NCBI GenBank assembly: GCA_014905635.1
Contig: JABVCE010000012.1
Coordinates: 992,001-1,056,000, forward strand
Source: Scenedesmus sp. PABB004
Taxonomy: Eukaryota
Length of the DNA: 64,000 nt
Direction of reading: 5' to 3'
The notes under the pieces were generated by a model, which was given only the letters and a program-made list of their open reading frames with translations, made no database searches and had not been told where the DNA came from. Both the position numbers and the translations under genes were made by a program. Positions 99 to 60,015 of the stretch are shown piece after piece (the stretch's first letter is position 1; the number at the start of each line of letters is the position of its first letter).

Positions 99-354
99 CG
101 TGCTGGCGCCACCCGCCGCCCAAGGGCATGCCCGCGTTCGGCATGCGCGTGCCAGGCACGTGCACGAGGGTCAGCAGCACCTGCTGGCGGCGGCGTTCCA
201 GCAGCAGCAGCAGCAGTAACGCGCGCTGCTGTACGGCCGCCGCCGTGGCGCAGCCGCAGCGCCGACGACGCCCCGCCTCCTCGCCCAAAGCCGCTTGCTT
301 CCAAAGTCACACCCCCGGCCACACACCGGCCGCACAGTCTCTCGTGACCTTTTG
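1..354 (+). mobile_element. Probable degenerate Fanzor/TnpB-like nuclease 3' fragment (truncated at window start)
   Basis: Frame 2 reads LSINECRTSRVCT-DSNVHL-LSINECRTSRVCTACW. This matches the (V/I)(D/N)E-x-(R/Y)TS-x-x-CxxC motif that precedes the zinc finger of TnpB/Fanzor proteins. The expected second CxxC and RDxN motifs are absent and a frame switch follows (ARHVHEGQQHLLAAAFQQQQQQ*, stop 217-219). A hairpin lies at 302-354. Confidence 0.5.
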
Positions 355-695
355 ACGCCGCTCCCGGCAACGCGGGGCCACGATGCTGCAGCCCACCAGC
401 GGCCCGCCGCACCTGGAGCGTAGCGCTCCGCGAAGGGGTGTGGCGTGGTGCGGGAGTGCCGCCACCGCGGCGCCGGCGCGCGGCGAGGAGCCGCGGGCGC
501 GCCGCGCCGCCGCCGCGCGGCGCGCTCGCCGAGCCGCCTGGCCGCCCGGGGGCCCCGCCAGGCCGCGCTCCTCCCACCGGGGGTGAACGCTCCTCCTTGC
601 CCTCCGTCCGCAGGCGAGCCGGCGCTCGCCGGGGACTGGGGCGCGCGGTGCGCGCCGCAGCAGCAGGCGGCGCCCGCCGACGCGGCGCGGCTCAC

Positions 696-44890: not shown

Positions 44891-45109
44891 GCCCCCGACC
44901 GGCGCGCGCTGCCATGTACAGCTCTGCACAGTCTCTGGACACGCGCGCCGCGAGCGCACCGCCCGCAGCACGCGCGGCGCCCGCGCGCCCGCCGGCCCGC
45001 CCGCGCCGCGCGCGCGGCTGCCGTCGCGGCAGCCCCGGCGGCGGCGTGGCCCCGGGGGCGGGGCGCGCGCGCGTGCGGCCGGCCGAGCCCCTGCGCCTGC
45101 TCGTCCGGC

Positions 45110-46836
45110 TCAGTCGTACTGGCTGGGCTGGATGATGTCATCCACCTTGAGTATCATCTTGCACACCTGCGCGCAGCGCGCGCAGCGCGCCGCGGGGCGA
45201 GGGGCGGCGCGCAGGGGCCGGCGAGCGCAGGTCAGCCGCGGGCCGTGCGGCGTCCGCTGCCGCCGCCGCCCGTCCGCCGCGCGCCGCCGCCGCGGGCTGC
45301 GCGCGCCCGCGCCCGGGCGCGTCCCAGCGCGCCTGCGTGGCGAGGAAGAGCTGCTGCTTCTTGCCGATGAGGGTCTCGAAGACGTTCTGCGTGCGCATGT
45401 CGTTGGTGCCGACGTCATTGCAGTCGATGCCGAGGTGGGGGTTGGACTCGGCGAGCTGCCGCGCCTTGACCGCGGTGAGGCTCTCGATGCTCGGCAGCCC
45501 GCTGTTCTCCGCGAGCGCGAGCGGCACCGCCTCGAGCGCGTCTGCGGGCGCGCGCGGCGGCGCGGCGGCGCACGGCGCGGCGGCAGGCGGCGTCGGCGGT
45601 GGCGCGAGGTGCGCGGCAGCGCGGCGCGCGCCCGGCGTGGGCGGCAGCGCAGCGCGCGTGCGCACCCGCAAAGGCGCGCATCGCGTACTGCTCCACGCCG
45701 ACGACCTTGTCGGCCGCCGCCTCGACCGCGAGGCTGCACGCGATCTCGGCGGAGCCGCCGCCGTACACGATGCTGTTGTCGCGCACCTGGGAGAGGGCGT
45801 GGGGCGGGGCGAAGCGGGGCCGGCGGCGGCGTGACGCGGCGCGGAGCCGCGGGCGCCAGCGTGCCGCCGCGCGGCCGTGAAGCACCCCTGCCCCGCGCCG
45901 CGTTCCCCGCCGCGCCGCGCGGGCCGGCGTCGCCGCGCACCAGGTTGCGCGCAACGCAGAGCGCGTCGTGCAGGGAGCGGCGGACCTCGTCGAGGACCAT
46001 TTTGTTGCCGCCGCGCACCCAGATGGTCACGGCGGAGAGGTTGGGGCAGCCCTCGATCACGATCGAGCGGTCCTTGGTCGTGCCGTAGCCGACCTCGCGC
46101 ACCGACTTGGCAAAGCCGAGCTTGTCGGGCGTGAGCTCCTGGGGAGGAGGCAAGATGTGTGTGTGTGTGGGGGGGGGGCAGGCGCGGGTCGGCGCGCGCG
46201 GGCAGGGCCCGAGGGCGCGCGGGCGCGCTGCGCGGCGGCCGCGCCGCACGGGCCGGCGGCGGCGCCCGGCTGCGTGGCGGCGCGTGGCGGCTTGCAGCTG
46301 CCGCGCGCTGGGCGACCGACGTGCAGACCGCCACGTGCCGCCGCGCAGCGAGGCGCCGCGCGGCGCCGCCGCGGCCGCCGCCGCGGCCGCCGCCGCCGCA
46401 CCTCGAAGCGCGGCACGATGCGCGCGCCGGTGGCCATGGCGAGGAGCTCGATCTCGACGCCGCCGACCCAGCGGATCGCGGGCAGGCCGTGGTGCATGAG
46501 CAGGTGGTTGGCCTCGTCCTCAAAGCCCCACTGGCAGATGATGAGCCCCGCACCTGGCGCGTGTGCGGCGCCGCGGCGGCAGCGGCGGCGGTGCGTCGGC
46601 GGGCGCGCACGCCGAGCCGCGGCACGGCCGGGCGGGCGAGCACGTGCGGCGCGCTGCGCCGGCCGAGCCGCGGCGCGGCCGAGCCGCGGCGCGCACCCGC
46701 GGCCTTGCACTTCTGGACCATGTCCACAAAGTACTGCTGCTCCGCGGCGCGCAGCGACTCAAACTTCTCGACCGTGTCGATGTCCACCTGCGCCGCAGCG
46801 CGCGCGTGCAGCGCAGCGCGCGTGGGCCGCCGCCCC

Positions 46837-46872
<36 letters not shown>

Positions 46873-48461
46873 TGGCGCTGGGGCTGGTCGTGCCGGCGCC
46901 GCGCCGGCCAAGCAGCGCGCGCGCCTTGTGCTTGGTCTTGGGCTTGGGCGCCTCGAAGGGGCAGGTGAGGATCGCGATCTTGACGTCGTGCAGCTCCTTG
47001 GGCATCTGCGGGTGGCTGAAGTCCTTGTCGATGACGATCCCCTCCACCAGGCGCGTGTCCTCCATCGCGCCGCCGACCTTGCCCTCCACCTGCGCGGCGG
47101 CGCGCGGCGGCGCGGCGCGGCGGGCGCCGCGCTCAACAACGGCAGGCGGCAGCGGCAGCAGGAGCAGCGGCGGCAGCAGGCGTGCTGGCGGCAGCAGGCG
47201 TGCTGGCAGCAGCGGCAGTGGCGGCGGCAGCGCCAGGCGGGCGCGCCTTGATGAGCTCCAGGTTGACGTCGCGGCGCGGCAGGTCGGCGACCGCGAGCAC
47301 CGCCTTGACGCAGATCTCGGCCATCTGGCGCTTCAGCCGGCCCACGCTGCGCGGCACGGCCGGCGACCGGCGGGCGCGCGCGCGTCGGGCGCTGCCCGGG
47401 CGGCGCTGGCGGCGCGCGCGGCGCGGCGCTGCACACGCACACTTTGCTGGAGAGCGTGGTCATGCAGGTCTGCACGAGCGGCTCGACGTCGGCGGGGTCA
47501 AAGTCCCACTTGGTCGCGATCGCGTCGAGGTGCGCCGTCGCGACCTTGCAGGCCATCTCGTAGCCCTCGGCGACGCGCAGCGGGTGGATGCCCATGTCCA
47601 GCAGCGACTCGGCCTGCTCCAGCAGCGAGCCTGCGGCGCGCGGCGGCGGCGCGTGGGCGGGGGCGCCGCGCCGACGCGTCCAGGGCGGCGTCGCGGCCGC
47701 GGGCGCGGCGCCGCGCCGGCGCCGCACCCGCGAGCACGACGACGCCGGTGGTGCCGTCGCCGATCTCGTGGTCCTGGCTCTTGGAGAGCTCCACCAGCAG
47801 CTTGCCGATCTGGTTCTGCACCTCCATCTGCTCCAGGATGGTCGCGCCGTCGTTGGCTGCGCGGCGGCGGGCGGCGGCGGCGGCACGCATGAGCGGGCAG
47901 CGCGGGGCGGCGCACGCGGGGCGGCGGCGCTGCACACGACGGTGGCAGCGCGCCGCGACAGCAGCGCGCCGGGCCCGGCCGCGCGCCGCGGCAGCGGTCG
48001 GTTGCCGCGGTTGCGCGCGCAGCAGCGGCGGCGCCGCCGCCTCAAGCCGCCGCTGCGCGCGCGCCCGCGCGCCCGCCGGGGCGCTCACTGATGGTGACGT
48101 CGCCGTCGGGACTCTGCAGCATCTTGTCCATGCCCTTGGGCCCCAGCGACGAGCGCAGCGTGCGGGCGACGCTCTTGGCAGCCAGGATGTTGGCCTTCAC
48201 CGCGTCTATGCCGCGCAGCCGGCTCTTGCTGGCTTGCTCCTGGGGCGCGGAGGCGCGCACGCGGCCCGATCAGCACGCACGGGCCGCCGCCCGCCGGCGT
48301 GCGCGCCGGGGCGCGGCGCCGCGAGCTCCGGCGCGCGCGCCCCTGATGCGCGCCCGCCGCGCGGCGCCCGCGCCCCGACGCCTCGCCGCCGCTCGCGAGG
48401 GCCACAAACGCACCCGCAGGATGATGAAGGGCCGGCCATACTCGTCAAAGGCGAGCGACAT
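45110..48461 (-). CDS. CCT5: T-complex protein 1 subunit epsilon (cytosolic chaperonin CCT5), multi-exon
   Basis: [82 protein letters not shown], and the C-terminus [16 protein letters not shown]. Confidence 0.98.
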
Positions 48462-50161: not shown

Positions 50162-53099
50162 TCAGCCGTGCTTGCCCAGCTCGATCTTCCGGCGCGCGCT
50201 GAGCGTGGTGTGCAGCATGGCGTCGAGGATGCCCGCGACGGTGAACACGCCGCCCACGACGGCGCACGTGGTCGTCGCAAACTTGTAAAACGGCCTGCGC
50301 ACCTCGCGCACGACGACCTGGATCGGCGACAGGTCGTACGTGAACCTGCGGGGGCGGGCGGCGGCGGCGGCCGCGGGCGCAGAGTCGGGGGCGGGCGCGG
50401 AGGCAAAAGGCGGCGCGCTGGCGGCGCGGCGGCGGCGCGGCTGGCGCGGGGCCGCGTGTTGGGCGCACTTTGCGGTCGGCTGGTTGTCGCTGTGGTACGT
50501 GTGGCTGTGCGCGTTGTACTCGTACGCGTCGTAGCCGCCCCCGCGCCCGCCGCCGCGCGGCACGATCGTCGTACGCACGACCTGCGCGGCGGTGGGCGGG
50601 CCGGCGCGGACCGCGCGGGCGCTTCGGAACGGCGCCGCCGCCGCGCGGCGCCGCGCCCAGCGCCCCGGGCGGCTGCGCGCGCGCGCGCGCCTGCATGTAG
50701 TGTTCGTGCGTTGACTGCGGGCTGTCGCTGACGAAGGACTGGCCCGCGAGCTTGTCGAGCCAGTCGGCGCTGAGGCCGAGCGGGTGGAGCTTCTTGAGCT
50801 CGTACAGCTTGTGCGGCGTCGGCTTGGCGCCTGCGAGCGCGCGCGGGCGCACGCGCGTGCGCGGCCGCGGCGGCGGCGCGGACGTCAGCGCGGGCGCAGG
50901 GTGGGCGCGGGCGCGGAGTGCAGCGGCTGCGGAAGCGCGGGCGGGCGCAGGTGCAGCGGCGGGTGCGGGCGCGCACCAAAGTAGAGCTCGTGCACGGCGT
51001 GCGTCATGTTCATCCAGTCGTGGTCAAAGCTGTGCCCCTCGCTGCGCGCGGTGAAGTGCAGCGTGCCGGGGACCTTCTTGACCAGCACAAAGCCTGGCGC
51101 GGCACGGGCGCGGGGCAGGCGCGGCGCAGTGAGCGCGCAGCGGCGGTGGGCGGCGGTGGGCGGCAGGCGGCCGGCGGCCTGCGGCGCCGCGGCGCACCCG
51201 CGACCTGGCAGCCCGACACGTGCGGCGCGCCCTCGAGCTGCGAGTGCCGCACAAAGGGCTGGCCCGCGCTGGGGACGAGCGAGTCGGCGAACGCCACGAG
51301 CGCCTCCTTGGTGCGGTCGCCGGTATAGGCCTCGTGCTCGTGCCGGCCCTGCAGCGGCGCGGCCGCGGGCGCGGTCGCGGCCCGCCGGCGCCGCACGCGC
51401 GCTGCGACGCCGCGCACGCCCAACCACCACCCGCGCGCGGGCCGCCGCGCCCACACCCGCGGCCGCACCTCGATGTAGATGTCGTCGTGCGAGCGCCGGA
51501 AGACGCGCAGCGAGGGGAAGCCGGTGATGAAGTGGCTCTGGCACAGGTCGACCTCCGCCGTGCAGTCGACCTGCGGGCCGGCCCGCCCCACGCGCCGCGG
51601 GCTCAGCGGGCGGCGCCGGCGGCGCGGGCGGCGCGGGCAGGCGAGCAGGCAGAGCGGGCGGGCGGGCCCGGGCGCGCCTTTGCGAAGCGGATGCGGCGGT
51701 CCGTGGTGTCGGGGTACTTCTCATGCACCTCCTTGGTCGCCGCCTCCCACGCGGGCTCGAGCCGCTGGCACCAGTGGCACCACGGCTGCCGGCGGCGGCG
51801 GCGGCGGCGCGTCGGCGGCGGCGCGCCCGGGGTGCGCGCACGCGCGGCGCGCTGGGCCGCTGCGCTCGGGCGCTGCGCTCGGGCGGGGGACAGCCCGCTC
51901 TCACCGCGTAGAAGTTAACGACCACGATGGGATAGTGCGCCAGGGTGGTCTTGAAGTTCTCGTGGTTGATCGGCTGGCTATAGTCCAGGTGCTCCCACCA
52001 CTGCGCGGCGGCGCCGGCGCGCGGGGCCCCCGCCCGCTCGGCCGCGCCGCGCCGCGCCGCGCCGCGCCGCGCCGCGCCGCGCCGCGCCGCGCTGCGAGGC
52101 CGCTGCGGGGCGCACCATGTCCTCGTCGTCGTAGCGCGGCGCCGTGGTGGTCGTCGGCTGCAGCTGCGTGGGGCCCTGGACCTGCAGCGCCACGTCGACG
52201 GGCGTCTTGCTGATGGTCCGGCTCAGGTTCATTCGCTTCTTGCCGAGCGCGTCGCTGACGTCAATGGTTGCAAACTCGCAGGACAGCGCCGGAAAGCTGC
52301 GCGCGCGGGGCGGGCGGCGGCGGCGGCGCGGCGGCGGCGGCGAGTGGGCTGCCGCCGGGGACTGCGCGGCGCCGCGCCCGCGGCGCGCGCGCGCCCACAG
52401 CGCCCGCGGCGGCGCCGCGCCCGCCCGCGCGCCTGATGTTGAACGTGACTTTGAGCAGCTCGTTCTGTGGGCTCTTGTCGATCACCATCTCTGTCGTGGT
52501 TTGTAGCCGCAGGAAGCTCGCCAGCTCCTGCGACCCCGCGTGGCGCGGCGCGGGCGTCGGCGCAGGCCCCGCCTCGCCCGCGCCGCTGGTCGCCGCCGCC
52601 GCCCAGCACTGCCGCCGCCCGCCCGCCTGCTGGCCGCGGGCCCGCACCAGGATCAGCAGCAGCACCATGATCACCGCGGCGGCGAGCGAGACCACCGACC
52701 CCGTGAGCGTGGCCTCGGTGAGGTCGCTGCGCACGAGCGTGCGTCAGAGCATGGGGGCCGCGGCGGCGCGGCGCGGCGCGGCAGCGGCGGCACGGCAGCA
52801 GCGGCAGCAGCAGCTTCGGCGGCGGCGGCGCCCGGTTGCGCGTGCCGCCTGGCGCGTGGCTGCGGTGCGTGGCTGCGGTGCCCGTGAGCTGTGGCTTGCG
52901 GGCAAGGGGCTGACCAGGCTATGCCGCTGGCCCTGGGCGCGCTGGGCCGCGCAGCAGGACAGCGATGCTGGTGATTTCCGGGCCTCCCGGCTCGCCCGCG
53001 CCCGTTCGTGCCGGGCTGGCGCCGGGACGGGCCTGCCACTCACGCGGGGATCTTCTTGTAGAAGTCCACCGCCTTAAATCGTTGCTTCAGAGACCCCAT
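50162..53099 (-). CDS. PDI-C class protein (Erv41/Erv46-ERGIC domains plus thioredoxin domain; PDIL5-like), multi-exon
   Basis: N-terminal FKAVDFYKKIPADLTEATLTG, FPALSCEFATIDVSD, thioredoxin VNFYA|PWCHWCQRLEPAW, VKKVPGTLHF, FTYDLSPIQV, CAVVGGVFTVAGILD, and the C-terminus KIELGKHG*. Confidence 0.93.
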
Positions 53100-53309
53100 C
53101 TCTGCTGCTGCTCCGGGCGCGGGCTGCCGCCCTGTGCGCGCTGTCGTGCCGCCGCCGGGGGCGCGCGCTCACATCCCGGGGTTGTGACAGCGCCGCCCAG
53201 CGCGCACGCCGCACGCCGCAGCCGCCGAACCGCCGCTCAACCGCCTCGCGCGCCGCGCTGCCCGCCGGCTGCCGCCCGCGTCGCCGCCGCGCGCCGCCGC
53301 CGGCTGGCG

Positions 53310-55067
53310 TCACCCGGCGGCCTCGAGCAGCGTCGGCCCGTGTGCGGCGATGACGCTCGCGCCGAGGCACACCTCGCCCGCGTACGCCACGAACGCCTGC
53401 CCCGGCGTGAGCCCCCGCATCGGCGCGGCCAGCTCGGCGACCCAGAGCTGCTCGCCGGCGGGCGGCGCGTCGCGCGCGCCGCCGCAGAAGCGGCTCGCCG
53501 CGAAGGCCTCGCCCGCCGCGAGCGGCCGCAGCGTGCAGCCCGCGCTCGCCTGGCGGTAGCGCGCCCGAAACTGGCACGCGACCGCGCCGCCGGCGCCGGC
53601 GCCGGCCGGCGGCACGCCGGAGACCCAGCTCGGCGCGCGCAGCAGCGCGGCGCCGCTCGCGAGCGCGGGGTGGCCGTGCCCCGCCGCGACGTGCACGACG
53701 CCGGCGACGAGGTCCTTGCCCGCGACGTACACGCGCCCCGCCTGGCCGCCGAGCCCCGCCGCGCGCTGCCCGACCGTGAGCGCAAGCATGTTGGCGCATC
53801 GCCCGAGCGCCCGCCCCGAGTCCACGTCCACGTACGTGCCCGGCGCCGGCGGCAGGTACGCCTCGACAAAGCGCCCGAAGCTGCGCCGCCCGATGAAGCA
53901 GATGCCGGCGCTGCTGCGCCGGCCCGCGCTCGGCAGGCCCGCCGCCGCCGCGAGGCGGCGCACCACGGGCTTGGTCAGGTGGCCTGCGGCCGCGCGCGCG
54001 CGCGCGGCGCGGGTGGTGGCGCGGCGCGCGTGGCGCAGCACGCAGCGCTGCAGACGCGGCGGGCGCGGCCAGCGGCGGCGCACCGACGGGGAAGACTGCG
54101 TGTGCGAGCTGCTCGTGGCTGAGCGAGGCGAGGAAGTAGGTCTGGTCCTTCTCGGCGTCGCCGCCCGTCAGCAGCAGCGGCCGCGGCGCGCCTGCGCCGC
54201 CGCCGCCGGGGCCGCCGCCGGGGCCGCCGGGGCCGCCGGGGGCGGCGCCGCCGGCGGGGCCGGGGGGGCGGGCCAGGCGAGCCGGGCGTAGTGCCCCGTA
54301 GCGAGCGCGTCGGCGCCGCGCGCGCGCGCAAACTGCAGCAGCGCGCCGAACTTGATCGCCGCGTTGCACGCGAGGTCGGGGTTGGGCGTGAGCCCGCGCT
54401 CGAGGCCGGCCAGGAAGCCCTCAAACACCGACGTCCAGTACGGCGCGACAAAGTCGGCCTCGTGCAGCTCGATGCCGAGCGCGGCCGCGACGGCTGCCGC
54501 GTCGGCGGCGTCGGCGGCGCCGCTGCACGCCGGCGCGCCGCGGCCCGCCTCGTCGGCGGCGTCCCAGTTGCGCATGAACACACCAAAGATCTCGAAGCCC
54601 GCGCGGCGCAGCAGCAGCGCCGCGACGGCGCTGTCGACGCCGCCCGAGAGCGCGACCGCCACGACGCGGCGGCGGCCGCCGGCGGGGCTCGCGGCCGCGG
54701 CCGACGCCGCCGCCGCGTCGCCCGGGGCGGCGCCGGTGAGGGCGTGGACGGGGTCAAGGCGATACGGGCCGACGCTCACGGTGGTGGTGAACTGCCGGCC
54801 GCAGCCGGCCCGCCCGGTCGCCCACGGCGGCGGCGGCGGCGAGCCGGCGCTGACTCCACGTGGCCGGCGGCGCTGCCCTGGCCGCTGCTGCCACGGCCAC
54901 GGCGCCCACTGCTGCAGCTCGTGCGCAGGCCACTGCTGCTGCTGCTGCTGCTGCTCCGGCTGCGTGCCGTGCGCCGCCCTGCTGCAGGCCGCCAGCGCCC
55001 GCAGCGCGCACGGCAGGTGCCGTGCCAGCAGTGCCGGCGCCTCGCGCGCGGCCGGCGGCGCCGCCAT
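53310..55067 (-). CDS. mnmA: tRNA-specific 2-thiouridylase MnmA/TRMU (organellar); one intron and one apparent frameshift near 54262-54268
   Basis: VAVALSGGVDSAVA, VFMRNWD, TPNPDLACNAAIKFG and ATGHYAR, then in another frame KDQTYFL, SAGICFIG, TVGQR and TPGQAFVAY. Confidence 0.92.
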
Positions 55068-55077
55068 GGCCGGGCGC

Positions 55078-55461
55078 TCAGTCGCGCTTCTTGGCGCCCG
55101 GCTTTTGCTGCTCCTCCGGCTGCTCTTGCTGCGGCTGCTCCAGCGCCTGGTCCGGCGGCTGCTGCTGCGGCTGCTGCGGCGGCGGCGGCGCGTCTGATGC
55201 GAGCGACCCCACCACGAAGATGGACGCGGCCCAGAGGCCCAGCGTGAGCCCCAACAGCACCAGCACGTGCGGAACCAGATCGGTGCGACCGCTCGTCGCG
55301 ACCGCTGCCAAGAGAAGGACCAAGCTCAGCAGCACGCCAAAGAGCACGGCGTTCAGCGCCGCAAACGTGGCCCAGTTCACCACGCCAGGCGTGACCGCGC
55401 CCACCGCGATCTGCTCCAGGAACGAGCCGTCGCGGACCTCGCCGGCGGCGCTGCTGCTCAT
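55078..55461 (-). CDS. Small two-TM ER membrane protein, Pkr1-like (V-ATPase assembly factor family), intronless
   Basis: 127 aa. FLEQIAVGAVTPGVVN...LNAVLFGVLLSLVLLL...PHVLVLLGLTLGLWAASIFVVGSL follows, from memory, the Pkr1 pattern (F..TPG..TM1..H..LW..TM2). It has a charged tail ending in KKRD (KKxx ER-retrieval motif). Confidence 0.75.
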   Translation of the reverse strand: MSSSAAGEVRDGSFLEQIAVGAVTPGVVNWATFAALNAVLFGVLLSLVLLLAAVATSGRTDLVPHVLVLLGLTLGLWAASIFVVGSLASDAPPPPQQPQQQPPDQALEQPQQEQPEEQQKPGAKKRD

Positions 55462-55890
55462 CGGGCCGCGGCGGCGGGCGTGGCGGCGGAGCGGGTAGCT
55501 AGCCGGCCCGGGTGTGCGACCACATGACGCAGGCGCGGGCGGCGTAGCAGGGGCGACGCGCCCGCTCCGCGCCGCGGCGGCGCAGGGCGCAGCGCTCGTA
55601 ACAGCGCCGTGCGTGCCGTGCCAGCGGCTGCCACGCGCGCGCCCGGGCTCTCCCGCCCGTAGCGACTAGGGCAGTAGTTTGTCCACATCGGTCCAGATAT
55701 TTTCCGCTACAGCCGGCAGTCTCGGCCTCGGCGGCCCACCCACGCCCGCCAGGCAGCCCAGGCGCCGCGCCCACAGCCGTTCCGCGTAATCTGTGACAGC
55801 GGCCGAGCCACAGCCGAGCCGCTCCGGCTCGACCGGCGCGACCGCGCGCAGCAGCGGCGGCGGCGCGCCGCACGTCACCCCGCCTGCGCG

Positions 55891-58800
55891 ATGCTCGACA
55901 GCCGGCGCAGGGGCTCGGGCGAGCTGAAGCGCCCGGGCGCGTCCTCCAGGCAGCTGGGCCAGCCGCAGGGCGCCGGCGCGCAGGACCGCGCGGCGCGCGC
56001 GCTGACTGCAAAGCAGCAGAGCGCGAGCAGCCTCGCCGCGTCGCTGGTCTCCAGCCTCTCCTGCGGCGGCGGCGGCGGCGGGCACACGGCGCCGCCCAAG
56101 CCCGACGCCAGCCTCAGCTTCAGCTGGCAGGGCGGCTGTGGCGTCGGCAGCGGCGGCAGCGGCGGCACCGGCCTCGCCGACCTGGGTGCGGCGCCGGTGC
56201 CGCGCTGCGCCCAGGCCGGGCCGCGCGCGGGCGCCGCGCGCCCGCGCGCGCCCCTGCTGACCGCCGCCTGGCCGCGCGGCAGGCACGGCGCTCGGCGCGG
56301 GTCGGTCGATGTCGTGCAGGCTGCCCGAGCCGCTGCGCGCCGCCACGGGCGGCGACGGCGGCGACCACGACGCGCTCACGAGCGGCAGCGACGACGGGCT
56401 CGGCAACGCGCTCTGCCGCACCGGCGCGGGCAGCCTCAGCGGCCGCCAGCTCGGCGCAGCCGCCGCAGCCCTCGGGAGCCCCGGCAGCATGAGCGGCCCA
56501 CGGTGAGGCGCGGCGCCGCGCCGGCGGGCTGGCAGACCAGCCGGCAGACGCCGGCGCCGCGCGGCTCGACCCCGCGGCCGCGCTGCGCTGCGCGCAGGCA
56601 GAAGGCCGCGCGCGTGAGCTTCCTGCCCGGCGGCAGGCTGGAGGCGGACGCTCCGGTGAGCGCGCCTGGCCTCTGTGCCGGGGGCGCCCGCCGCGGGCGC
56701 AAGCGCCTGCGCACGCCGCCGACCGCGGCCCCGCGCCCGCGCAGGCGCCGCGGCGGCCGGCGCGCCACCCGCCGACCTTCAAGCGCAGCCACACCGCGGC
56801 CTGGGGCGAGTCGCTGCAGTTCTTTGCCACGCCCGGCGCGTCGCCGCCGCCTGCGCCGCGCCCGGCCGCGGCGCCAGCGCCGCCGTCGCCGGCGCCGGCA
56901 GGCGGCCTCAAGAGCAGCATCGCAGCTGCGTTTGCCAAGCTGGCGGTCGCGATCGACGGCGGCCGCGCCGCGCGCGGCGGCGGCGGCGCGGCGGCGGCGG
57001 GGCAGGCGCCCGCGTACAAGCACGACACCGGCTACCTCGCCTTGTCGCCTGCCACGTCGCCCGCGGGCTCGCGGTCGGCCGTGGGCGCGGGAGGCGGTGC
57101 GGGAGGCGGTGTGGGAGGTGGCGCGGGCGGTGGCGCCAAGAGCGGGCTCTCGCGCGCGGGCAGCGCCGTGGCGCTTCCGCGGCCAGGGGAGGCGGAGGCG
57201 GGCGGCGAGAGCGACGTGAGCGGCGAGAGCGACGAGAGCGACGACGCGAGCGACGACGGCGACCTGCTGGGCCTGCCGGCGCTGCCGCCCGGCGTCATTC
57301 CCCTGTTCGCCGGCGGGGGCGCGTCGCCGGCCGCGCCCAGCTCTGCTGCGGCCGCCGGCGCCGCGCCGCGGGCGCCGCCCGAGGCGCGGCCCGGCCCCGC
57401 GGCGCCGCCCGGCGCCGCCGGCGCGCCGCCTGCGGCGGCGGCGCGTGCGCTGGCGCTCGCGCCGCCGGGCGACCCGGCGCCGCTGCTGCTCGCGGTGTCG
57501 CCGCGGCTCCCGCCCGCGATGCAGCGCGCGTCGTGGAGCCTCGCCGACTTCGTGGTGCAGCGCAAGCTCTACGATGGCTACGCCTCCACCATCTGCAAGG
57601 CGCGCACGCAGCGGCTCGGCGCGCGGACGCAGAGCGCCGCGCATCCTGCAAGCTGCGCGCCGACGGCCGCCGCCGCGCGCGGCGCCGCAGGCCGTCGACC
57701 GCGTGTCAGGCGCGACCGTGGCGTTGAAGCTCTACCACATGGCCAAGCTCAACGCCATCAGCAGCCACCAGGCGCGTGCGCGCCGCAGCGTTGCGCCCGG
57801 GCGGGGCGGCGGCGGGGCGCCCGCGCGCCCCGCGCGGCGGGGTGCCGCGCCCACGCGCGCGCGCGCTCTCACATGTGTGGCCGTGTACACGGCCGCGCAG
57901 GTTGCGCGCGAGGCGCGGCTGCACGCGAGCCTGGACCACGAGCACATCATCGGGATGCACGCCGCGTTCCAGGAGGCCGGCAAGGTGGTCATGGTCCAGG
58001 TGCGCCGGCGCCGCGCGGCGCGGCACGGCGAAGCCGCCGCACGCCCCTGCTGCACGCGCGCGGCCCGGCCGGGGGCGGGGCGCCACGTCGCCGCCGCGCT
58101 TGCAAGTTTTGCCTCCGCGTCGCGCACGCGATGCGGGCAGGAGTATGCGTCCGGCGGCGACCTGTGGGCCTACATCAACGCCAACGCGGGCCGCCTCAAC
58201 GAGCGCGTGGCCGTGTCGCTCGTGCTGCAGCCCTTCCTGCGCGCGCTGCAGCACCTGCACGCCGCCGGCATCGCGCACAGGCGCGGCGGCGGGGGAGGGG
58301 CGCGGGCGCCGCCCGCCGCCGCCGGCGGCCGCGGATGCGACCGTCGCCGGCGCGGTGCGGCCACGCCGCGCAGGGACATCAAGCCCGAGAACGTGCTCTT
58401 CTCTGGCGGCATGGCGCTCAAGGTCGCCGACTTTGGCCTGGCCGTCAGCCTGCGCGAGGAGCGCGCCGTCACGCGCGTCGGTGCGCGCCCGCGCCCGCGC
58501 CCGCGCACGCCCCTGCTGCGGCGGCCGGCGCGCCGGCAGGCAGCCCACGCGCCGCGGCCGCGCGCCCGCCGCGCGCGGCTGCCGCCCAGGCACGCTCGAC
58601 TACATGGCGCCCGAGGTGCTGCGCTGCCCGCTCAAGCGACAGCCGGGCGACAACAAGGAGCGCGCAGACCTGCACTACTCCCAGGCGCGCCGCGCGCTCG
58701 CAGGAGGGGCGCAGCGCCGCGCGGCGCGCGCTCGCAGGACGGGCGCGCGCGCGCGCCACGCGACGCGAGCCGTGCTGTCAGCTCTCCGCAGCGCGGCGGC

Positions 58801-59399
58801 GCCGCGCGCAGGCGGTGGACGCGTGGGCAGTCGGCGTGCTGGCCTATGAGCTGCTCACCGGCAGGCGCGCCGCTGGCCTGCTGCGCCGCGCGCCGGCGGC
58901 GGGGCGGCGCTGGCGCCCCGGTCGCCGCTGCCGCCCGCCGCCGGCCAGGCGCGCGCCGCGCGCGCGCCCACGCGCCGCCGCGCCGCTGCGCCGCCGCCGC
59001 AGGGCGCCCTTCTCGGCGGTCGGCGCGACCGACGTGGCGGTCGAGGCGGCGATCCAGGCGAGCAGCCCCGTCTTTCCCAGCCGCATGTCGGAGCCCGCCG
59101 CGGCGTTCATCGCCGCGGCGCTGCAAAAGGCGCCCGAGCGGCGGCCGACCATCCTGGCGATGCTGCAGCACCCCTGGATCCGCAGCTTCACGCGCTCCAG
59201 CTCCAACGGCCGCGCCGAGCGCCGCCGCTCGCGCGAGGGCGGCGGCGGCGACGCGCGGCCGTCGCCCGCGCCCGCGGCCACGCCGGGGCCGGGCCCGCGG
59301 CCGGCGCCGCCCGCGCCCGTCGGCGCGGGCCTGCCGCACCTCGCCGCCAAGTCCCAGGACGACAGCGCCCTGACCGGCTACGCGAGCGCAGGGCGCTGA
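55891..59399 (+). CDS. Aurora-like Ser/Thr protein kinase (algal ALK-type) with long N-terminal extension, multi-exon
   Basis: WSLADFVVQRKLYDGYASTICK, VALKLY, VAREARLHASLDHEHI, HRDIKPENVL, KVADFGLA, GTLDYMAPEV, VDAWAVGVLAYELLTGRAPF and MLQHPWI. Four upstream exons are phase-consistent. Confidence 0.92.
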
Positions 59400-60015
59400 C
59401 GCGTCGCGGCGGGCCGGCCGGCGCTGCGGCGCTGGCGGCGGCGATCAGGTTGCTCCTGTGTGTGAACTCGCACTCGTGGCGGCGCTGGGGCTGTGCAGTT
59501 GGGCAGGCGGGCGGCGCGGTCTTGGCCGAGCAGGTGAATGTTGAGGCGGCGGCGGCGCGGCGGCACTGCGCAGGAGGACAAGTCAACCAGGGGCGCCGCC
59601 TGGCGCACGGCGGCGGCGGCTGTGGCGGTGCACGCAAGCAAGCTACGAAACGCGTAAGGGGGCGGGGGAGGGCGGCATTGCGGCCGCCGCGCAAAGCAGG
59701 TCAACGCGCGGGCGTCGAGAAGTTGGTACGGCGCGCGAAACGCTTAAACCCCGCGCCGCCGACAGCTGTGACTTCACGCCGCCCCAGCCCGCGAATCACC
59801 GCAATCGCGCGCGCCCCCGTTCAGGTGGTCCAGCGTCGGACTCAGCCGCGCCTGCGGCGCCCGCCCACGCGCGCTCAACGGCGGCCGCGCGCGACGCGCT
59901 GCGGCGGCGCGCCCACGGCCCCCCGCGCCACCCTTCCGGGAACGCCTGCCACTCCTGCCTCTGCTGTAGCGTGGGAGGGCCGGCACGCCCGCGCTGCAGA
60001 GCGTCGGCGGCGAAG

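Follow-up and report, generated by a model that had tools for sequence, protein, structure and literature searches.

The question considered here is whether two genes that lie only 10 nucleotides (nt) apart in the genome of the green alga Scenedesmus sp. PABB004 are expressed from a single messenger RNA (mRNA). The pair is found in a 64,000-nt stretch of contig JABVCE010000012.1 (assembly GCA_014905635.1, positions 992,001 to 1,056,000 of the forward strand), which as a whole is referred to as the window and whose numbering is used throughout. An original prediction, made from the letters of the sequence, had proposed that a short Pkr1-like open reading frame (ORF1) and, immediately downstream of it, the gene for an organellar tRNA thiolase, MnmA (ORF2), are translated from one mRNA, a pairing which it did not know to have been described. 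In the present analysis the anatomy of the locus, the families of the two proteins and the conservation of the pair were observed directly, and together they make it probable that the locus is the orthologue of a conserved green-algal bicistron, in which both proteins would be produced from one mRNA by leaky scanning. The locus is real and conserved and of a kind that is already known, the pair having been catalogued in one alga, Auxenochlorella protothecoides. The pairing is therefore not new but is already in print, in supplementary tables only (Duenas et al. 2025, PMC11892635).

Anatomy of the locus

Both ORFs lie on the minus strand, and when the coordinates were re-read the stop codon of ORF1, the start codon of ORF2 and the spacer between them were all found where they had originally been placed (Table 1). 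The list of ORFs gives 127 amino acids (aa) for 55078..55461 and 299 aa for 54168..55067, with ORF2 in the +1 frame relative to ORF1. As in a bicistronic locus, two complete ORFs, both with separate start and stop codons, lie on the same strand with a 10-nt spacer between them, and the first (384 nt) is smaller than the second, whose coding blocks span 55067-53310. Published median lengths for ORF1 in such loci are 291-357 nt, and the published median inter-ORF distances are 40 nt in Auxenochlorella and 183 nt in Chlamydomonas (Duenas et al. 2025, PMC11892635). The spacer in the window is short compared with the 210 nt that separate the MnmA stop codon from the ATG (53099) of the next gene on the same strand, and it is also shorter than those of the other loci compared in which a Pkr1-like ORF comes first, namely 42 nt in Auxenochlorella, 56 nt in a metagenome contig (L001) and 70 nt in Chlamydomonas. 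Since the window has a GC content of 77.9% overall, long ORFs mean little on their own and the argument has to be carried by homology.

Table 1. Features of the proposed bicistronic unit in the window and of its relative in metagenome contig L001 (own numbering)
Feature	Position	Strand	Remarks
Upstream flank	55462..55724	-	Must hold the transcription start site (TSS) and 5' untranslated region (5' UTR) of the unit; TSS position predicted
ORF1	55078..55461	-	127 codons, TGA stop included in interval; ATG 55461-55459, TGA 55080-55078
Inter-ORF spacer gcgcccggcc	55068..55077	-	10 nt, between ORF1 TGA and MnmA ATG
ORF2 (MnmA) start ATG	55067-55065	-	Context ggccATGg
MnmA first coding block	54276..55067	-	N-terminal extension, then PP-loop HUP domain through GHYARLAW (end ~54276)
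Pro/Ala/Gly-rich low-complexity insert with 1-nt frame change	54177..54275	-	Three-frame translation, tandem repeats
MnmA continuation (LLLTGGDAEKDQTYFL...FPVG)	54084..54176	-	Ends at phase-1 GT donor
MnmA intron, GT-AG	53984..54083	-	100 nt; GT at 54083, AG ends 53984
MnmA last exon	53310..53983	-	GICFIG, PRC-barrel, C-terminal beta-barrel; stop TGA 53312-53310
L001 Pkr1-like ORF	262-669		42% identity to window ORF1 over 77 aa; PF08636 E 8.1e-6, 26.3 bits
L001 MnmA ATG	726		56 nt past Pkr1-like ORF; opens ORF with MnmA PP-loop (PF03054)

The upstream protein

A word-indexed protein search with ORF1 alone gave 555 candidates, none of them at E<=1e-3. A full HMMER scan of 1.84 billion representatives with residues 1-95 returned 26 proteins at E<=1e-3 (best 7.6e-11), of which 24 are small (83-211 aa) and are matched over a single stretch at 38-56% identity; P0005 (344 aa, five stretches) and P0024 (1763 aa, seven stretches) were excluded as probable low-complexity matches. 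The existence of homologues, which the original prediction had left to be settled, is thereby established. An alignment of ORF1 with 21 homologues (22 members; P0011, P0023 and P0025 do not form part of it) has ten invariant columns, among them G21, G26, N29, T32, L62, P64, H65, L76 and W77. ORF1 aligns end to end with its homologues and is free of gaps where an intron would be needed, which bears out its description as a short, intronless ORF of 127 codons.

The family to which these proteins belong is indicated by Pfam profile PF08636 (Pkr1). ORF1 itself matches the profile with E 2.7e-4 over positions 2-69 of 73, and its score of 21.5 bits lies under the Pfam gathering cut-off of 27.7 bits, but 18 of the 22 aligned members match PF08636, the best with E 2.8e-12. 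A profile search yielded 21 relatives, more or less distinct from one another, and 17 of these carry a precomputed PF08636 assignment; those with names are from Chlamydomonas species and from MMETSP transcripts. In the Atlas clusters nearest to one homologue (P0003), Pkr1 is found in 11-45% of members. The label "Pkr1-like" thus stands for the family, although the window protein does not reach the cut-off by its own score. Because recognised Pkr1 proteins are among its homologues (18/22 and 17/21 in the two sets), ORF1 is, by transitive homology, a real and conserved gene for a small membrane protein of the Pkr1 family, predicted to reside in the endoplasmic reticulum (ER). The possibility that it is merely a regulatory upstream ORF (uORF) was rejected, since its protein sequence is conserved.

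Other properties of the protein were counted over a family of 43 members that includes P0011, P0023, P0025 and the window protein. A hydropathy plot of ORF1 reveals two hydrophobic segments (sliding-window starts 26-42 and 61-71), and its C-terminus is KKRD, a form of KKXX, which is an ER retrieval signal; 23 of the 43 members, the window protein included, end in KKXX. Internal Met is absent from 24 of the 43; if many members of the family are first cistrons under leaky scanning, a scarcity of Met is to be expected. No fused forms of the family were present among 8000 scored candidates in a profile search of proteins of 294-2000 aa, which is weak evidence.

Davis-Kaplan et al. are said to have described yeast Pkr1 in 2006 as an ER membrane factor for V-ATPase assembly (PF08636 / IPR013945). 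Like ORF1, yeast Pkr1 is small and has two hydrophobic segments, and most of the algal homologues pass as Pkr1; it differs from ORF1 in that the latter scores under the Pfam cut-off and that the V-ATPase assembly role is a finding from yeast, and yeast PKR1 is not known to be part of a bicistron. The original prediction had called ORF1 an ER V-ATPase assembly factor. Membership of the Pkr1 family is upheld, but the V-ATPase role is a yeast annotation which a plant V-ATPase review calls unconfirmed.

The downstream protein

ORF2 begins with an extension of 133-135 aa that is rich in Ala, Arg, Pro and Gln and whose first 40 aa contain four R, no K, no D, two E and 13 A; it is a putative organellar presequence. 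The MnmA HUP domain (PF03054) follows at aa 136-264 (E 3.3e-42), aa 134-264 match E. coli MnmA (PDB 2DER; E 1.3e-36) and the PP-loop motif SGGVDS is present. Further downstream the last exon matches PF20259 (E 6.6e-10) and PF20258 (E 3.7e-11). The motifs KDQTYFL and GICFIG are also present in MnmA. To judge from its domains, ORF2 is an MnmA-type tRNA 2-thiouridylase with HUP/PP-loop, PRC-barrel and C-terminal barrel. It has these features and the SGGVDS PP-loop in common with the bacterial enzyme (2DER), from which it differs in its low-complexity N-terminal extension of 133 aa, in a Pro/Ala-rich insert containing a frame break, and in having one intron. The eukaryotic organellar counterparts of MnmA are MTU1/TRMU, and an organellar location is predicted for this protein, as an ER location is for ORF1.

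A true MnmA start much further downstream, which would remove the close spacing of the two genes, had been named as one way in which the proposal could fail. There is, however, no in-frame ATG in the ORF2 translation between 55067 and the SGGVDS PP-loop, so that this MnmA exon can have an AUG start at 55067 only, which speaks against one far downstream. The only alternative would be an upstream MnmA exon spliced on to this one, and no sign of such an exon was seen.

Conservation of the pair

Metagenome contigs were scanned for related loci with a seven-sequence alignment of the ORF1 family, and of 115 pattern matches one, L001 (2106 bp, 60% GC), was confirmed as a relative; a scan of viral contigs with the ORF1-family alignment gave 150 pattern matches and no relative. 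In L001 a Pkr1-like ORF is again followed by MnmA, with ORF2 in the +2 frame relative to ORF1 (Table 1). Past its intron the contig has a second MnmA exon, which shares 54% identity with the window MnmA. The intron falls within the HUP domain, at a position where the window gene has none, and the two genomes must therefore be well diverged. The L001 MnmA (726-2106) also has a Ser-rich N-terminal extension of ~258 aa ahead of the PP-loop.

The same pair occurs in Auxenochlorella protothecoides UTEX 250-A, where UTEX250_A02.02855 (ORF1, 291 nt) and UTEX250_A02.02850 are catalogued as a bicistron with a 5' UTR of 71 nt, an inter-ORF distance of 42 nt and no ATG ahead of ORF2 (Duenas et al. 2025, PMC11892635, Dataset S1B). 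According to Dataset S5 of the same paper, UTEX250_A02.02850 is a tRNA-specific 2-thiouridylase MnmA (IPR004506) with a DeepLoc score of 0.91 for the mitochondrion, whereas UTEX250_A02.02855 scores 0.84 for the ER and has no InterPro annotation. The Auxenochlorella bicistrons are described as having been curated from Iso-Seq, their ORFs occurring exclusively on the same transcript, and Dataset S2B records the A02.02855/02850 pair as colinear in Prototheca cutis (PMC11892635). In the Auxenochlorella genome paper, orthogroup OG0008107 holds both UTEX250_A02.02855 and Cre03.g152505 of Chlamydomonas (PMC12636532, Dataset S9), and the latter is annotated as IPR013945 / PF08636 Pkr1 (PMC11892635, supplement), which makes the Auxenochlorella ORF1 an orthologue of a Pkr1-annotated gene.

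The window and Auxenochlorella pairs are alike in that a small, ER-predicted membrane ORF1 stands directly upstream of MnmA on the same strand, with a short inter-ORF distance and no ATG before ORF2. They differ in that ORF1 of Auxenochlorella, as tabulated, is 291 nt long and spans 599 bp of genome, from which it follows that it has introns, while that of the window is intronless at 384 nt. Homology between the two ORF1 sequences rests on the orthogroup and on the first codons of the Auxenochlorella gene (ATG TGG CT), which fit the N-terminus of the family. The original prediction had proposed to look for synteny of the pair in other chlorophytes; colinearity of the pair is observed in L001 from the present search, and in Auxenochlorella and Prototheca cutis from the literature.

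Chlamydomonas reinhardtii also has a bicistron in which a Pkr1-family small protein is the first cistron, but its downstream partner is a SET-MYND methyltransferase and not MnmA. This pair, Cre03.g152505/Cre03.g152500, is listed as a high-confidence obligatory polycistron with Ribo-seq reads of 89 and 58 on the two ORFs and as colinear in Volvox, and Cre03.g152505 is 357-375 nt long, with an inter-ORF distance of 70 nt and a DeepLoc ER score of 0.93 (Gallaher et al. 2021, PMC7896298; PMC11892635). All trebouxiophytes analysed are scored as having the MnmA orthogroup, OG0004898, and C. reinhardtii as lacking it (category IV; PMC12636532, Dataset S9). The main text of Duenas et al. (2025, PMC11892635) contains no mention of MnmA, thiouridylase or Pkr1, and a full-text literature search found no paper on Pkr1 in a bicistronic context or on thiouridylase in algal bicistrons.

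One transcript or two

If the window pair is used as its relatives appear to be, one capped, polyadenylated nuclear mRNA would carry ORF1 and then, 10 nt on, ORF2. The alternative is that there are two overlapping monocistronic transcripts, with the TSS of MnmA lying inside ORF1 and the ORF1 mRNA being polyadenylated within the MnmA coding region. Genes on this strand are closely packed elsewhere too, as the 210 nt between the MnmA stop and the ATG at 53099 demonstrate, and the depletion of ATG in the window is not significant when taken alone: there is no ATG in the 391 nt between the two starts, where dinucleotide shuffles have a mean of 1.82. In L001, however, there is none in 461 nt, against a mean of 3.84 in dinucleotide shuffles, only 0.46% of which are free of ATG, and past the ORF2 start of that contig ATGs occur at 2.2 per 100 nt. 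A depletion of this kind would not be selected for if the two genes had separate transcripts. The tight order of ORF1 and MnmA has also been kept between ORF1 proteins that are 42% identical, with spacers of 10, 56 and 42 nt, the minus strand is free of TGTAA from 55900 to 53000, and the orthologous Auxenochlorella locus is among those curated from Iso-Seq as exclusively bicistronic (PMC11892635). Two overlapping transcripts are therefore considered unlikely. That one mRNA yields both a Pkr1-like ER protein and an organellar MnmA, as originally proposed, is supported by the conservation of the pair in L001 and in Auxenochlorella.

Integrity of the MnmA reading frame

The MnmA frame does not continue undisturbed down to 53310, being broken by 1 nt within ~54275-54177 and interrupted again by the GT-AG intron at 54083-53984. 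The first frame closes at TGA 54170-54168 after 299 aa, and PF03054 is split over two frames, with profile positions 3-131 in one and 139-171 (E 1.6e-6) in another. An intron bridging the break was considered and rejected, because no GT donor is found from 54330 to 54097 and an in-phase XGC codon is lacking for a GC-AG intron ending at 54192.

It might then be argued that the break is real and that ORF2 is a pseudogene, in which case only ORF1 would be functional and the arrangement would be a decaying relic, inherited but not used; both the lack of any GT or in-phase GC donor to bridge the two frames and the early TGA would fit such a history. The break nevertheless sits in a degenerate 3/9-nt tandem repeat (54180-54273) in 80%-GC DNA, and assembly indels are likely in GC-rich tandem repeats of this type. 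Past the break the matches to PF03054, PF20259 and PF20258 are all still there, the KDQTYFL and GICFIG motifs are present, and so is a clean GT-AG intron, whose splice codon (G+GC) is Gly and reads on as GHLTKP. As all of the sequence past the break still matches MnmA profiles, an assembly indel is more likely than a pseudogene, and a relic is judged to be improbable.

Mode of translation

The model published for green-algal bicistrons is one of leaky scanning, which is associated with a weak Kozak-like context at ORF1, depletion of AUG before ORF2 and short 5' UTRs, and in Auxenochlorella strengthening the Kozak-like sequence of ORF1 was reported to lower the output of ORF2 in vivo (PMC11892635). 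In the window ORF1 starts in the context cccgATGa (C at -3, A at +4) and ORF2 in ggccATGg (G at -3 and +4), the latter in agreement with the gccATGG of the original prediction, and in L001 the two contexts are cagcATGc (A at -3, C at +4) and gagccATGg (G at -3 and +4). The sequence ahead of ORF2 is depleted in ATG in the window and in L001, as it is in green-algal bicistrons. Leaky scanning would be consistent with the contexts of the two starts and with the absence of ATG between them, and its extension to the window would be by analogy with the Auxenochlorella experiments. A portion of the scanning 43S complexes would begin translation at the ORF1 AUG, with its apparently poor context, to give a two-helix ER membrane protein of the Pkr1 family with a KKXX retrieval signal, and those that leaked past would meet no AUG for 391 nt and would then start at the strong-context AUG of ORF2, to give an organelle-targeted tRNA U34 2-thiouridylase of the MnmA/MTU1 type.

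Two further possibilities can be set aside. In Auxenochlorella, with its 42-nt inter-ORF distance, the tabulated data put ORF2 in frame with ORF1, and the fact that the frame relation differs among the three loci (+1 in the window, +2 in L001, in frame in Auxenochlorella) argues against readthrough or a fusion protein; a fusion of ORF1 with MnmA by readthrough or frameshifting was accordingly rejected. A tricistronic unit extending into the next gene was also rejected, since ATGs within MnmA (e.g. ~54575) would block leaky scanning to a third ORF. Translation of ORF2 mainly by termination and reinitiation on the same bicistronic mRNA, with the post-termination 40S subunit resuming 10 nt past the ORF1 stop, is very unlikely, for although so short a spacer keeps the ORF2 AUG within its reach, and Duenas et al. 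state that some reinitiation cannot be fully discounted and that a scarcity of AUGs around the ORF1 stop fits it too, reinitiation is cited there as falling in efficiency with uORF length (ORF1 has 127 codons) and the in vivo effect of the ORF1 Kozak-like sequence runs counter to it (PMC11892635), as do a spacer length that is not conserved (10, 42 and 56 nt) and the combination, by the general -3/+4 rule, of apparently weak ORF1 and strong ORF2 contexts in both the window and L001. Reinitiation across the 10-nt spacer may still contribute a share.

A conserved green-algal bicistron read by leaky scanning remains the probable explanation of the locus, and a number of points have to be set against it. 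It is inferred that Scenedesmus sp. PABB004 makes a single transcript, the transcript evidence belonging to the Auxenochlorella pair and the window pair being known from genomic sequence. The start contexts were judged by the general -3/+4 rule. The ATG depletion of the window is weak evidence by itself, as 8% of its dinucleotide shuffles are also free of ATG, and when synonymous codons were permuted with the protein held fixed 59% of permutations for the window and 71% for L001 were ATG-free; as most are, the depletion must come from amino-acid content (no internal Met) and not from codon choice. The minus-strand ATGs at 55688 and 55525 would be upstream AUGs if the TSS lies beyond them. A real 1-nt frame break would cut ORF2 short after 299 aa. 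Dataset S2B records colinearity of the Auxenochlorella pair in one of the six species compared, the other five cells being empty (PMC11892635), and in the published tables the Pkr1-like ORF1 of Chlamydomonas has a different ORF2.

Flanking sequence and neighbouring genes

The upstream flank contains an AT-richer island at 55658-55724. Of the two ATGs in it, that at 55688 opens an out-of-frame ORF of 76 codons which overlaps the start of ORF1, and that at 55525 begins a candidate uORF of eight codons with TAG as its stop. A protein kinase gene lies at 57200-59400 on the plus strand, divergent from ORF1, and a bidirectional promoter region may serve both.

Only two copies of the 9-mer GCTGTCACA are present in the 64-kb window, both on the minus strand (55800-55792 and 53191-53183), and its 8-mer core is absent from the plus strand of the window. 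The two copies flank the proposed unit, ~340 nt upstream of the ORF1 ATG and ~120 nt downstream of the MnmA stop respectively, and some similarity reaches upstream of each. The 9-mer could be a 3'-end element, a promoter element or a chance occurrence.

Downstream, the next gene on the same strand runs from 53099 to ~50165, and a candidate minimal uORF (ATG-TGA) is present at 53174, 75 nt upstream of its ATG. Its start resembles ERGIC_N (PF13850, E 1.2e-4, sub-threshold), a WCHWC thioredoxin-like motif can be read in the translation of one exon, and the C-terminus is of the COPIIcoated_ERV family (PF07970, E 3.6e-11); the gene appears to encode an ER-Golgi protein of the PDI-C / Erv41-46 type. 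Also on the minus strand, at 45100-48200, is a multi-exon gene for a TCP-1/cpn60 chaperonin.

Biological significance

The locus adds an independent instance to one specific green-algal bicistron, and it supplies a family name (Pkr1-like, with a KKXX tail) for the ORF1 of the Auxenochlorella bicistron that lacks an InterPro annotation. Gene callers can be expected to miss ORF1, or to place the start of MnmA wrongly, at loci of this kind. The pair has been kept although its ORF1 proteins are only 42% identical, which favours the idea that selection maintains such loci.

An important consideration is what it is that selection maintains. A Pkr1-like ORF1 stands before MnmA in Auxenochlorella, Prototheca, the window and L001, and before SET-MYND in Chlamydomonas and Volvox, both scored as lacking the MnmA orthogroup. 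It is suggested, tentatively and as the less probable case, that the Pkr1-like gene is a persistent "first-cistron rider" across the core green algae, its position being conserved and its partner exchangeable. That the first-cistron position has been kept with a differing partner is inferred from published tables in combination, and no discussion of it was found in the searchable main texts. If it is true, selection would act on the expression of ORF1, as a low dose coupled to the downstream gene by leaky scanning, and not on any link in function between the two. A natural test is offered by Chlamydomonas, with its change of partner, of whether it is the first-cistron position or the specific pairing that is under selection.

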